A DNA stretch of 64,000 nucleotides from an uncultured virus (IMG/VR IMGVR_UViG_3300032069_000001) (IMGVR_UViG_3300032069_000001:1-64000); one strand, 5' to 3'; positions 13,821 to 35,804 are shown, counted from the stretch's first letter. Translations and numbers: made by a program. Notes: generated by a model from the sequence alone, not told the origin.

Positions 13821-15245
13821 CTATAAGAGGTTCAACGGAACTGCCGAGCTTCCGACGTTGATTACCAAAGCACCTTTCTTCGGAGCGTAAAGGATAGGAA
13901 CTCCGTATAGGAGTATCATAAACCTAATCGCCGCCGAAATGGTTGCTAATGGTAACTTCATTATCGGTGCTAATTGCTTGAACGCCATAACTTGTATGGG
14001 GTTCATATCAAAGAAGAACGCAGGAGACGTTCCCTCAATGATTGACCCGTCGTCATATACCACAAATGTCGGGTCGCCAGGCGTGTATCCGCTGTCGTCA
14101 GCGGGAACAACAGTTTTCAGATAAAGAAACGCACCTGAAGCTGTCTGCCTGTAAATCTTGTAAGCTGTCGGAGCAGGCTGGTCTTGCGTCGGTGTTGCGG
14201 TCGGAATAGTGATGGTCAGAGCCACCCTGTTCGTATCCGCTACTGTCTGCACGATGGAACCGCCGACAGATGCACTTTCGCCGTTTGAGTTGACCGCAGA
14301 AACTTTCCAGTCATACGCACCCGCTTTCAGTTTGTAAGTTGTGCCTGCACCCGCACCCGAGGCAATACCTAACCCCGTAATCGCAGGAGCACCTGTCTGT
14401 CCAGGAGTAATAGGTGCAGAGCCTTCCCTGATGAAAACATCAGGATTGAAAGCATACACACCATTCTGGCTGGAGAAGTGAGTTATCGGAACACCGACAA
14501 CACCTTTTTCAGGAGCAGGTAGCTGAACACGTTCCCTCGGAAAGAAGGTCTTTGCAATGTTCGCTATCGCTTTTGTTGAAAGGAAGCAGTCAGTCACCAT
14601 ACCGTAGTTTATCGCTACGACCTGGCTCGCATTTTCAAGGATACCTTCAGAAATCGGCATACCTTGTGCGTCAATGACGTTTCCGCCATCGGCAAGCATT
14701 TTAGCATAGCCGTCAAACTGTAAGGGAACTTCCCTTGAGCTTCCGAAAAATAACGATTTTTCTATCGCTCTCATAATCCAGAGCGTTCCGTTCCTTGCTT
14801 CCAGGGCAAGAATATCCCCGTGAGCAGAGCGGACAAGAGTTGCTGGGTGCGTTACAACCCTGGTGCTTCCCAGGAATTTGACTAACGCAACCTTTCTTTC
14901 GTATTGTGTATCTTCTTCCCTCGGCAGACCGCCTTCCTGGAAGAACGCCCCGCTGTCAGCACCGTAATCAGTCAACCTGTTGTATTCCTCGGCTGTGCTG
15001 TATGCAGGTATTTTGTTTATCTTCTTCCAGAGTTTTACGTGCTGGTCTTGGAAGGTCAACACTTTCAATGTGCTTTCAAGCGACTGCGGTCTCAATGCAC
15101 CGCCACCAGTTTGAAATGCGACATCGTAGCCTGTTGAAATAGCTTTGTTCAGGTCATCAAGAATTGATGCAGAAGCGAGGTCGCCTCCGCCAAATCCCTG
15201 GAGACCTTCATAGTCGGCTAACGACACCATATTTTCTATTGACAT
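13821..15245 (-). CDS. Major capsid protein (Twort/SPO1-like)
   Basis: LNKAISTGY..GGGALRPQSLESTLKVLTF..KIPAYSTAEEY; Cps-like; follows protease and scaffold. Confidence 0.92.
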   Translation of the reverse strand: MSIENMVSLADYEGLQGFGGGDLASASILDDLNKAISTGYDVAFQTGGGALRPQSLESTLKVLTFQDQHVKLWKKINKIPAYSTAEEYNRLTDYGADSGAFFQEGGLPREEDTQYERKVALVKFLGSTRVVTHPATLVRSAHGDILALEARNGTLWIMRAIEKSLFFGSSREVPLQFDGYAKMLADGGNVIDAQGMPISEGILENASQVVAINYGMVTDCFLSTKAIANIAKTFFPRERVQLPAPEKGVVGVPITHFSSQNGVYAFNPDVFIREGSAPITPGQTGAPAITGLGIASGAGAGTTYKLKAGAYDWKVSAVNSNGESASVGGSIVQTVADTNRVALTITIPTATPTQDQPAPTAYKIYRQTASGAFLYLKTVVPADDSGYTPGDPTFVVYDDGSIIEGTSPAFFFDMNPIQVMAFKQLAPIMKLPLATISAAIRFMILLYGVPILYAPKKGALVINVGSSAVPLNLL

Positions 15246-15287
15246 ATTGAATGTCCTCCTTAATTAAAATTTTTGGAACTTTAAAAA

Positions 15288-16115
15288 TTATTCTCCGTAA
15301 ATCAAACCTTCCAGAGATTTATCAAGGACGCCAGTAACTTCAAATTTTGAAGTTGCCCCTACTGGAGCTTTGCCTGACACCTCAAGATTTGCAAGTTTGT
15401 CAGCGATTTGAGCTTTTGACAGTTCCTTGCCTTTATCTCCTTCGTTGCCTCTGAAGGATTTTTCTATTGACCTTCCGCTCTTTGATTTTGAAGGCATCGG
15501 TGCTTCACCGAATTCTTCAATGCTGTCGCCGAGGCTCTTAATGAAATCGTTCTGTGCTTCCTGCGATTTCAAAAATGCCTTTTTGAATTTCACATTGGAT
15601 TTCTCCAGGCTTTCAACTTTTGCGGAAAGAGTGTCAATGCTCTCGCTTAAGCTCTTTACGAGACTTGCCAAGAATTCCGAAACCTCAAGAGCATTTTTCA
15701 TCTGCTCGTTTGACTTTACGGTCTCGCTGAAGCTTTTCTTGGTTTCTTTCTTTTTTGCTTCTTCTTCGTCATCGTCGTCATCATCTTCTTCTTTCTTTCC
15801 TTTGGCTTCTTCGTCATCATCATCATCTTCCTTTTTACCTTTTGCTTCCTCGTCATCGTCCTCGTCTTCCTTTTTGCCTTTGGCTTCTTCGTCATCTTCT
15901 TCTTTCTTGCCTTTGGCTTCCTCGTCATCGTCCTCGTCTTCCTTCTTTCCCTTCGCTTCCTCGTCCTCTTTACATTCTTCCTCTTTCTTCGCCTTTTCAA
16001 CGTCATCAGAAGCAGTCACTTCTTCGTCGTTAATGGACTTTTCCAAATCCTCAACCGCCTGGTCAAGGGATTTTTCAACTTCTTCCTTGTTTTTGGTTTC
16101 CTTGCTCATATTCAT
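15288..16115 (-). CDS. Capsid scaffold protein
   Basis: Acidic DDDEEAKGKKE repeats, coiled coil, many KS/KA sites; between protease and capsid. Confidence 0.75.
   Translation of the reverse strand: MNMSKETKNKEEVEKSLDQAVEDLEKSINDEEVTASDDVEKAKKEEECKEDEEAKGKKEDEDDDEEAKGKKEEDDEEAKGKKEDEDDDEEAKGKKEDDDDDEEAKGKKEEDDDDDDEEEAKKKETKKSFSETVKSNEQMKNALEVSEFLASLVKSLSESIDTLSAKVESLEKSNVKFKKAFLKSQEAQNDFIKSLGDSIEEFGEAPMPSKSKSGRSIEKSFRGNEGDKGKELSKAQIADKLANLEVSGKAPVGATSKFEVTGVLDKSLEGLIYGE
15760..15965 (-). repeat. Tandem EEAKGKK(E)D(n) coding repeats
   Basis: About six units visible in the translation. Confidence 0.8.
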
Positions 16116-34183: not shown

Positions 34184-34505
34184 CTGTCACCACCAGGCTT
34201 GAGACATCTCCATTCACGTCTCTTATAAAATTAGTTGTAATCGTTTTACCTTTTACGGTTTCAATGGTCTTATTGACATCTCCATTACCGTCTCTTGTAA
34301 TAGTTAAAGTTCCTGGCATTGCAACTTCTATAATGGGAACGGGGTCACCAATATCATTAGTGACTTCCACTTCAGGAGGCATTATAATCCCTTCAACCTT
34401 TGTCTGAATAGCCCAAGTTCCATCTGACAGTTTTACCACTACTGCCTGCCAGATTTCATCTCCCGTAAAACGCCTGCCCTCTAATGGAATTCCTCCTGGT
34501 GGCAT
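34176..34505 (-). CDS. Hypothetical virion-cluster protein
   Basis: GAGG RBS; RDGNGDV / RDVNGDV repeats. Confidence 0.55.
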   Translation of the reverse strand: MPPGGIPLEGRRFTGDEIWQAVVVKLSDGTWAIQTKVEGIIMPPEVEVTNDIGDPVPIIEVAMPGTLTITRDGNGDVNKTIETVKGKTITTNFIRDVNGDVSSLVVTVA

Positions 34506-34508
34506 AGA

Positions 34509-35804
34509 TTACCTCAACCCCTTTTTATACATATTCGTTAAATATTCACGTGCGAGTTCTTTTAGCTTATCTTCCGCAAGTGCAGGATAAGACATTCTCA
34601 ACTGACCAACAACATTAACTTCCCTTGATTTAACCCAGTCTTCCATTCCCTCATCATTTCCGAAGGATTTTTTAACAGATGCTTCCGCTTCTTTTTCCAT
34701 CTTTGTAAGCCTTGTGTAATAATCGCTAAATTCCTTTAAATGGTCTTTTGCAATTCCCTTTACATAATGTTCAAGCGGTTTAAGTTTGCCAGCATCACAA
34801 TCCTTTTTCATATCTTTCAATGTGGGTAAATGTTCTTTTTCAACTTCTTTACCCATCTTTATTTGTTCTTTCTGCGATTTTTCCACAGGCGGTTGTGCTG
34901 ACGGCGTGTAATCTTCCTTCACGCCTGGAAGTGCTCCGAGAGCTCCGCTGGCTATCCTTTCGGCTATCTGTTCATCTTCGGATTTCTCAAGAGACTGATT
35001 TACGGAAACATCAAGGGATTTATTCACATCAGGGCTTGTCCTTATCTGCGACCTTATCTTGCCCGCAATTTCAGTCGGCAGTTTTGACAAGAATATTTCC
35101 TGTTCTTTAATCGTTTTTTTCTTAAGATTTTCAATAATCTTAATAATATTTATACTCTTTGGTATCTTTGCCGTAGGCTTCAACTGTGCGGGTGTCGGTG
35201 CTTTTTCGCCTGGTTTTTTCTGTTCCTGCATCTTTGCTTCAGTTTTAACTCCTGGTCTTTTATAAACATATCTCCAATGACCCGCTTTTGTTTTCACCCT
35301 GTCAAGATACCTGTGAGGCATTTTCATAATACCTGGCATAACCGCCTTCAGCATATCAGATATGGGATTAAATTTGTTATCAGCAAAAGAACTGGCAATA
35401 TTGGATTTTGTAATTTCATCGTGAGACATTAAACCCTCTGTATTCATATCTTCTTCGGATTTTTGGATATAATGACCACCAGAAATAGCATAATTTATGG
35501 TATGAAGCAACATACCATTGGGACTATTTACGTCCACACCGAGTTCTTGAATATCTTTACTGATTTCCTGCCAGAGAGACTTGTCCATAATAACTGACGG
35601 CGTGGACTTCTCAAGCTGTTCACACTTGGCAATAATATCCGCTATGGACTTTTCCGCCTTTTTTGAAAATGCTCCGCCCATTTTTTGATAAATGGAAGAA
35701 ACAACCTTCCAGTATCTTGGATTTTCCCTTCCAAATTCTGGATACTGTTTTCTTGCTTGTTTTTTTGCTCTTTCCCATATACTCTCATTCACTTTACCAG
35801 GCAT
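34509..35804 (-). CDS. Putative head polyprotein containing a DUF5661-like domain
   Basis: QIKMGKEVEKEH..IAKDHLKEFSDYYTRL; about 11 KS/KA sites; HRY..WRYVY motif. Confidence 0.65.
   Translation of the reverse strand: MPGKVNESIWERAKKQARKQYPEFGRENPRYWKVVSSIYQKMGGAFSKKAEKSIADIIAKCEQLEKSTPSVIMDKSLWQEISKDIQELGVDVNSPNGMLLHTINYAISGGHYIQKSEEDMNTEGLMSHDEITKSNIASSFADNKFNPISDMLKAVMPGIMKMPHRYLDRVKTKAGHWRYVYKRPGVKTEAKMQEQKKPGEKAPTPAQLKPTAKIPKSINIIKIIENLKKKTIKEQEIFLSKLPTEIAGKIRSQIRTSPDVNKSLDVSVNQSLEKSEDEQIAERIASGALGALPGVKEDYTPSAQPPVEKSQKEQIKMGKEVEKEHLPTLKDMKKDCDAGKLKPLEHYVKGIAKDHLKEFSDYYTRLTKMEKEAEASVKKSFGNDEGMEDWVKSREVNVVGQLRMSYPALAEDKLKELAREYLTNMYKKGLR

Follow-up and report, generated by a model that had tools for sequence, protein, structure and literature searches.

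Head proteases of the T4 type (gp21 of T4, which acts on IPI-III and Alt, and those of phiKZ and 201phi2-1 and gp245 of SPN3US, which act at AXE) have several kinds of substrate: a single protease cuts the capsid protein, the portal, itself (with loss of a C-terminal piece), the scaffold or core proteins and packaged proteins that enter the cell, and the regions removed hold several copies of the motif (PMC10052503, PMC3012670). Of the 14 cleavage sites mapped in SPN3US, 13 are in N-terminal propeptides (PMC10052503), and the HK97 capsid protein has a 103-residue scaffolding domain (PMC10275583). Polyvalent proteins, according to the searched text of Iyer, Burroughs, Anand, de Souza and Aravind (2017, PMC5512222), are predicted to be packaged, delivered with the DNA and then split into separate enzymes, and the same text attributes their processing to a zincin domain. 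How and where they are split has stood as a hypothesis since 2017, with zincin autoprocessing as the proposed route. Here we analyze a stretch of 64,000 nucleotides (the window) at the start of a single 97,213-bp contig of a 97-kb phage, from an uncultured virus (IMG/VR IMGVR_UViG_3300032069_000001). Its head block encodes three non-shell proteins of 431, 643 and 2440 residues (p431, p643 and p2440; Table 1) in which a hydrophobic-x-K↓[S/A] motif (h-x-K↓[S/A], the arrow marking the predicted cut) recurs, as it does in the capsid protein, the scaffold and the prohead protease.

As in the T4 and phiKZ type, the candidate substrates share, by computation, the motif of the capsid maturation site, and the system appears to work like that of T4 from outside the T4 family. 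The protease is of another lineage (PHROG 1028, with an SPO1-like capsid), P1 is Lys rather than Glu, and in the enriched proteins no Glu pair ranks near the Lys pair, so the LxE/AXE specificity of the T4 gp21 family was not found. Unlike the cuts of T4, phiKZ and SPN3US, those predicted here fall between enzyme modules of one polypeptide, with a small unit, HKY, kept on the product. With capsid maturation in HK97 and Listeria phage A511 the locus shares a Lys-Ser/Ala junction, and its capsid and portal proteins are homologous to those of the SPO1 and A511 type. In A511, however, no large gene separates portal from protease, and motif enrichment is absent from all 17 head-region proteins tested; use of a capsid-type site for cargo appears specific to the uncultured clade. 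The predicted variant is a Lys-specific, non-T4 head protease that would dissect multi-enzyme polypeptides at internal joints, with the HKY unit retained.

The 2440-residue protein has the features of a phage-type polyvalent protein. As in the proteins described in the searched text of PMC5512222, it is giant and multi-domain, has its gene in the virion late region, between those of the portal and the protease, and combines a lethal-factor-related zincin with a kinase; an InPase-domain gene adjoins, and relatives carry ART-PolyVal, NUDIX, GNAT, MuF, PBECR2 and ddrB-ParB. It differs from them in that its joints carry the prohead-protease K↓[S/A] signal, which zincin-less members have as well, and in that its kinase is PI3/PI4-kinase-like (PF00454), whereas the kinase in that text belongs to a truncated Ser/Thr/Tyr-kinase clade. 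Text searches of PMC5512222 turned up neither a linker cleavage code nor the HKY unit. The modular effector payload proposed in an earlier note on this DNA was already in the literature as polyvalent proteins.

The lysine signal in the capsid, protease and scaffold proteins

Sequence identity of the capsid protein to its counterparts in SPO1, CP-51 and other Herelleviridae is about 40%, and the protein matches SPO1 gp6.1 in the PDB (9vel, E=7e-88). Its predicted maturation cut, K34↓A35 in LNK↓AISTGY (K34 codon at 15144-15146), aligns with the K23↓S24 boundary of A511, whose GenBank record (NC_009811) has the cps mat_peptide start at residue 24, after ..ALK↓SFTTGY. The site is kept in three related contigs (L001, L010 and L027, described below), and residue 1 of the 439-residue capsid chain 9row_B aligns with capsid residue 35.

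The protease matches PHROG 1028 over residues 8-165. Columns reading DYDH/NYEH and GWS(V/I)GG/GWSIEG are conserved among the window, L001, L010 and L027, and by inspection, outside the alignment, the A511 protease carries NFEH and GFSIEG; the conserved His and Ser are inferred to be a candidate catalytic pair. The L010 orthologue matches Peptidase_S78_2 at E=0.089 only, and no PDB sequence match was found for the window protein. In the window, the protease sequence K↓AISTS (after K204) resembles the capsid K↓AISTG, and a capsid-like stretch follows it, as it also does in L001, L010 and L027. The copy is of the phage's own capsid N-terminus in each case: in L027 the protease K↓AMSAGHKTGRDLDG matches the capsid K↓AMSAGSQTGRDLDG, and in A511 K↓SWTTGHGTTPDTQ matches K↓SFTTGYGITPDTQ. 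Such a lineage-specific copy after K↓[S/A] in each protease argues that the signal belongs to the prohead protease, and we consider it very probable that K↓[S/A] is the site of this enzyme in the capsid, the protease itself and the scaffold. Most site columns of the scaffold are common to L001 and L010. Comparison of the portal proteins of the window, L009 and L010 shows the C-terminal V-x-K633↓S in each (as VYK↓S, VHK↓S and VTK↓S, respectively), and LEK↓A is kept in two of the three.

Two peculiarities of these genes were also seen. Between WLK↓S and MHK↓A the protease has a Cys-rich insert, NCCGMC....C (16352-16450, residues ~172-204), which may bind metal; the window and L001 have this insert, and L010, L027 and A511 lack it. 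In L001 (1565-3674) the capsid gene is split in two open reading frames (ORFs; capsid residues about 1-128 and 138-474) separated by an ORF of 190 residues that bears a LAGLIDADG-like motif. The insertion is probably a homing element of the group I intron or intein type; the capsid gene of the window is uninterrupted.

For counting, the motif was written as the regular expression [LIVMF].K[SA], with K as P1, S/A as P1′ and the hydrophobic residue as P3, and each protein was compared with 20,000 composition-preserving shuffles, global and within 40-residue blocks. The scaffold has 11 sites against 1.46 expected and p431 has 10 against 2.09 (p<5e-5 for each), the protease has 5 against 1.27 (p=0.007), and a 178-residue protein, p178, has 3 against 0.53 (p=0.013), all within its first 65 residues. 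Taken alone, p2440 (14 against 7.8, p=0.025) and p643 (7 against 3.3, p=0.04) are marginal. Neither the portal (3 against 1.6) nor the capsid (2 against 1.2) is significantly enriched, and the remaining 126 ORFs of the 97-kb genome, pooled, have no excess (60 against 66.5). Correction for 134 ORFs leaves only the scaffold and p431 significant within this genome. When all 400 P1/P1′ pairs behind a hydrophobic P3 were scanned, h-x-K↓S was the single extreme outlier in scaffold, protease and p431 together (19 against 2.6, z=10), with K↓A also raised; K↓S was not the top pair in p2440 and p643 alone. On the data of this genome alone, the enrichment holds firmly for the scaffold, the protease and p431 and is no more than suggestive for p2440 and p643, the two largest cargo candidates.

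All individual sites quoted in the earlier note are present: LNK↓AISTG (K34) in the capsid; IDK↓A (K20), WLK↓S (K178) and MHK↓AISTS (K204) in the protease; VEK↓S (K50), LEK↓A (K80) and VYK↓S (K633) in the portal; and IEK↓A (K26), INK↓S (K87), LIK↓A (K305), LAK↓S (K1560) and LIK↓A (K1568) in p2440. Its counts of about 12, 11 and 9 for scaffold, p431 and p643 are somewhat above the 11, 10 and 7 found with the regular expression. The enrichment of the head cluster, which it had put forward for testing, survives correction for composition in scaffold, p431 and protease, is marginal in p2440 and p643 taken alone, and fails in the portal and capsid; of the three portal sites that it had listed, only the C-terminal V-x-K↓S is conserved in all three phages.

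Relatives and the joints of the polyvalent protein

When residues 1-1200 of p2440 were used as query in an exhaustive HMMER search, a family of homologues (P0004-P0009, 36-55% identical) with the N-terminal helix, zincin peptidase, HKY motif and kinase was recovered, together with about 100 further homologues of the peptidase domain alone, stand-alone or fused. Two contigs of one metagenome, L001 and L009, jointly make up the head block of a close relative; L010, from IMG/VR scans, is a third phage; and a strict HKY DNA pattern in IMG/VR gave L023-L035, among them the more distant L027, whose capsid is 32% identical. Other searches gave less: scans with the portal protein found relatives at 21-26% identity only, word-based searches with p2440, whole-length and shorter, and scans with P0110 and P0086 found nothing, and a word-based search with p431 found one partial relative only.

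The motif was fixed before it was tested in these relatives. In L010 the scaffold has 11 sites against 1.67 expected, the protease 6 against 1.07, the p431 orthologue 6 against 1.17, the p643 orthologue 7 against 1.84 (p=0.002), the polyvalent protein 8 against 2.73 and the portal 1 against 1.1. The L009 orthologues of p431 and p643 have 8 against 2.3 and 4 against 1.5, respectively, and in L027 the polyvalent protein has 21 against 6.1 and the scaffold-position protein 8 against 1.05; each of the p2440 homologues P0005-P0009 is enriched at p<=0.003. With families pooled, scaffold (39 against 5.6, four orthologues), protease (15 against 3.5), p431 (24 against 5.5), p643 (18 against 6.6) and polyvalent proteins (71 against 27.5) are all enriched at p<=2e-4, which fully confirms the observation of the earlier note at family level, and portal (8 against 5.3), capsid (5 against 3.4) and TerL (4 against 3.1) are not significantly so. 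The same signal is selected in p431, p643 and the polyvalent protein with their orthologues. For p2440 and p643 the enrichment becomes convincing only once the relatives are added. In the polyvalent homologues without the window protein h-x-K↓S ranks first of 383 residue pairs, and in eleven other HKY-bearing proteins the top two pairs are K↓A and K↓S, in this order, whereas these pairs come 271st and 249th in the control set of 24 large phage ORFs. The control phages, L012-L020, encode the zincin domain as stand-alone homologues, and none of their ORFs has a motif excess.

Within p2440 the recognizable enzyme domains are unrelated to each other: a zincin peptidase (residues 88-305) and a PI3/4-kinase-like region (~1920-2033), with small conserved domains at 578-642 and 811-864. 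The zincin HEIAH lies at residues 192-196, and H192, E193 and H196 are invariant in 36 sequences; HMMER matches set the limits of the peptidase at residues ~88-300. Its Pfam matches are weak (M91, Mx1 and ATLF), the dedicated model MPTase-PolyVal does not match p2440, and the best fold matches are zinc peptidases, PPEP and lethal-factor-like, all weak. The kinase region has DRHxxN ... IDNG and scores above the PF00454 gathering threshold, and homologues P0004 and P0006-P0009 share this kinase. For residues 930-1400 (22685-24097), the nearest neighbours in a language model are ART-PolyVal clusters (score only 0.87); Pfam detects no ART there, so that a third enzymatic module in this region is no more than a lead.

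The sites were placed relative to these domains with an AlphaFold2 (AF2) model of residues 1-480 (36 sequences; mean predicted local distance difference test score, pLDDT, 78) and with an alignment of seven sequences. The peptidase core (90-300) is modelled at pLDDT >90. K26 closes a helix and is followed by a disordered loop, K305 stands directly before disordered residues 309-346, and K87 and K305 bracket the peptidase. In the alignment K305 is invariant as h-x-K↓[S/A] in a linker that is otherwise unalignable, and more distant homologues have two or three extra sites in this linker; the conserved form of the K26 site is h-E-K↓[A/S/G], and five of the seven sequences have h-x-K↓[S/G] at K87. 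A conserved N-terminal helix of about 26-30 residues that ends in h-x-K↓[S/A/G] is found in 7/7 homologues and is a candidate targeting propeptide. K1568 is a paralogue of K305, each being [E/D]-L-I-K↓A followed by a Pro-rich linker and then an HKY unit. The best-supported predicted joints are K26↓A27, K87↓S88, K305↓A306 and K1568↓A1569. Past K1568, p2440 has no further motif site, so the kinase block would stay whole. Over six polyvalent or cargo proteins and the adjacent InPase protein, 10.8 of the 83 sites would be expected inside recognized domains and only 3 lie there (p=0.004), and in L027 sites bracket the NUDIX, ART and GNAT domains.

The HKY unit (HKYI.REG.PG.Y.Y.Y) occurs twice in p2440 and as a diverged copy in p431. 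The first copy in p2440 is modelled as a three-stranded beta meander (pLDDT 86-89). Among 33 non-redundant internal HKY occurrences, 22 have h-x-K↓[S/A] no more than 15 residues upstream, compared with 13% of random positions (binomial p about 1e-12), and 30 have a site within 50 residues. The spacing of 3, 6-10 or 25-45 residues is variable, which indicates two separate elements. In L025 and L028 the unit stands at the very start of small ORFs. It could serve in loading, DNA binding or ejection.

In p431 a conserved N-terminal domain is followed by the HKY-like unit at residues 164-181, 10 residues after K153↓A, and the DUF5661 domain (309-372) is bracketed by K309↓S and K379↓S; K52/S53, K66, K153 and K274 are invariant among its orthologues. 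DUF5661 is also found within a 1416-residue HKY-bearing polyvalent protein of L029. The InPase protein has one site, K138↓S, directly past its domain, and its gene abuts that of the portal; InPase, too, is a domain typical of polyvalent proteins. The p643 TAA stop and the InPase GTG start are in one frame, two codons apart (28859-29521). Read-through from one to the other was considered and rejected, since the L009 orthologue of p643 stops at the same point, which indicates ordinary gene abutment. The p178 match is to permuted papain-like amidases, and no orthologue of p178 was found in L009 or L010.

Proposed processing in the prohead and its alternatives

We infer that the prohead protease is the cutter, and that packaging, cleavage and injection take place. 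Hydrophobic-x-K↓[S/A] is most likely the context in which this serine protease (16112-16963) cuts, after the Lys. The enzyme would take the first 34 residues off the capsid protein, cut itself at its copy of the capsid site and chop the scaffold to peptides, and the portal C-terminus is probably trimmed. The non-shell proteins p431, p643 and p2440, encoded in the head block, would enter the prohead; that they are cut there by the head protease is probable. Cuts at K26, K87, K305 and K1568 would divide p2440 into a short N-terminal propeptide, the zincin module, a middle block and a C-terminal kinase block, each of the large fragments starting with a linker and a small HKY beta unit, and the fragments would be injected with the DNA. 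That the products are injected effectors is a possibility that we hold tentatively. With similar reserve, we suggest for this large uncultured clade with SPO1/Herelle-type heads a two-part cargo code, h-x-K↓[S/A] plus a retained HKY unit, by which the capsid protease rather than the zincin would split polyvalent proteins into injected enzymes, so that the repertoire could be predicted from sequence.

The earlier note had proposed that the phage encodes several polyproteins cut in the prohead into separate effectors. The cutting half of this proposal gains from the motif being very probably a prohead-protease signal (by the A511 homology and the protease copy), from its selective enrichment in scaffold, p431, p643 and p2440, and from the conservation of sites in variable linkers outside the enzyme domains. 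As to the release of effectors, p431 perhaps departs from it by scaffold-like degradation. As to the claim that sites mark the domain boundaries of p2440, K26, K87, K305 and K1568 agree with it and K144 does not. The note had missed that p2440 has its own zincin peptidase, a rival enzyme.

Several points weigh against cleavage of cargo by the head protease. Within this genome alone, p2440 (p=0.025) and p643 (p=0.04) are lost after multiple-test correction, and the pooled p-values are optimistic because orthologues are not independent samples; site conservation at 26-55% identity is informative by itself. The regular expression over-calls sites: K144 of p2440 lies in the folded peptidase core, in an invariant G-x-S-K at pLDDT 96, and was rejected as a cut site and taken as a false positive of the expression because it is within the conserved core. 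K87 is in a lower-confidence predicted helix leading into the core. The p431 model (3 sequences) has a mean pLDDT of 49.8 and is mostly low-confidence helix, so it does not establish the domain boundaries of p431. The protease has no Pfam family match, S78 included, even at E<=10. The A511 capsid cut has Ala and not a hydrophobic residue at P3, and the A511 scaffold-position protein is not motif-enriched, so the P3 rule is putatively specific to this lineage. Finally, a tblastn comparison of p2440 and of two HKY segments with 50,697 phage records gave no meaningful match and no cultured carrier of the cassette.

The alternative that survives best, although we think it rather unlikely, is that p431 and p643 are auxiliary scaffold or core proteins that are degraded and expelled, with p2440 the only cargo, if any. 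The site density of p431 equals that of the scaffold and its predicted fragments are 9-70 residues long; low-confidence helices make up most of its model, and with its 10 sites most of the protein may be broken down, as the scaffold would be, instead of yielding effectors. The 643-residue protein is Lys/Glu-rich and weakly similar to the scaffold, and neither protein has a recognizable enzyme domain. Against this, p431 has its HKY-like unit directly after K153↓A, its DUF5661 domain recurs in the L029 polyvalent protein of 1416 residues, and that domain lies between K309 and K379 as though released whole.

An explanation we consider unlikely is that the p2440 zincin domain (88-305) processes the polyvalent protein, in the head or after injection, and that the K↓[S/A] joints are its own sites or irrelevant. 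The domain has an intact HExxH and a confident fold, K87 and K305 bracket it, and autoprocessing by such domains is proposed in the searched text of PMC5512222; Pro-Pro endopeptidases are among its best fold matches and the linkers of p2440 are rich in Pro, a weak point in its favor. However, the motif also marks the capsid, protease and scaffold and the zincin-less p431 and p643, and HKY proteins of other lineages with K↓[S/A] sites (ART-PolyVal+NUDIX+GNAT, MuF+PBECR2+MuF_C, and ddrB-ParB+PAPS reductase) have no detectable zincin domain, yet are motif-enriched, which argues against the zincin as reader of the sites. Phages with stand-alone zincin homologues show no motif enrichment, and the A511 capsid is cut at the homologous K↓S although no such gene lies between its portal and protease genes.

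It is very improbable that the motif is a compositional or structural by-product (of helix ends, for example) or a binding or phosphorylation motif, with cleavage in the capsid only, since, although the enriched proteins are Lys-rich and largely helical and the motif was defined after looking at the data, neither global nor local composition-preserving shuffles give the excess, other Lys-rich ORFs and 24 large ORFs of control phages lack it, only K↓S and K↓A stand out of 400 pairs, and the sites are retained in linkers that cannot otherwise be aligned. A role of the motif as substrate of the phage's own kinase was likewise rejected: homologous positions carry either Ser or Ala, and this excludes a phospho-acceptor.

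If cargo cleavage by the head protease is correct, protease-matured capsid cargo would extend beyond the Glu-cutting heads of the T4 type to another protease lineage, and the products of giant phage genes could be annotated from sequence. The injected PI3/4-kinase-like enzyme and peptidase would then be candidates for early host-takeover or anti-defence factors. The locus and its relatives offer a sequence-testable alternative to zincin autoprocessing in which the exact predicted cut positions can be mutated, with the capsid, scaffold and protease sites as an internal control.

Head block and neighbouring genes

The minus strand carries all genes from 253 to about 43,300, and the window appears to be the late (head) operon of a phage with a Herelleviridae-like capsid (Table 1). 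The gene order, all on one strand, is portal, p2440, HNH genes, protease, scaffold, capsid, which places the protease after the portal and before the scaffold and capsid; L010, L027 and A511 share this arrangement.

Table 1. Features of the head block, with positions in the window
Feature	Position	Strand	Remarks
TerL	36149-38164	-	PHROG 675, E=1e-130
p431, 431 aa	34509..35804	-	PF18905 = DUF5661 at residues 309-372; 10 motif sites
178-aa protein (p178)	31438-31974	-	weak Peptidase_C92 match, PHROG 1128
p643, 643 aa, Lys-rich	29519..31450	-	no family match; 7 motif sites
InPase-domain protein, 218 aa	28859..29515	-	PF18823, E=2.5e-25; PHROG 4660 minor head protein
Portal, 647 aa	26986..28929	-	PF04860, E=5.8e-24; PHROG 12
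p2440, 2440-aa polyvalent protein	19562..26884	-	14 motif sites
p2440 zincin-like metallopeptidase domain (residues ~88-305)	25970..26623	-	HEIAH motif
p2440 first HKY unit (residues 350-376, HKYIERKGTPGNYIYIY)	25757..25837	-	44 aa after K305↓A
p2440 second HKY unit (residues 1607-1630, HKYIRREGQPGSYVYYY)	21995..22066	-	38 aa after K1568↓A and Pro-rich linker
p2440 PI3/PI4-kinase-like catalytic region (residues ~1920-2033)	20786..21127	-	PF00454, E=1.9e-10; PHROG 3162
HNH endonuclease gene and small ORFs	17794-18588 (HNH)	-	between p2440 and protease genes
Prohead protease, 283 aa	16112..16963	-	PHROG 1028, E=3.6e-20
Scaffolding protein, 275 aa, acidic, Lys-rich	15288..16115	-	PHROG 15087
Major capsid protein, 474 aa	13821..15245	-	PHROG 752, E=2.6e-88

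Three paralogous HNH endonuclease genes, 43-45% identical, lie at 17794-18588 in the window and at 84026-84652 and 96666-97142 of the genome. Related HNH genes occupy other places in the head block of L009, which suggests that they are mobile insertions. Several tail-fibre-like paralogues lie at 2894-11172: the genes at 2894-4039 and 4042-6297 have their first 180 residues in common (59% identity), and 7985-9783 holds three tandem paralogues of ~195 residues that are 47-59% identical.

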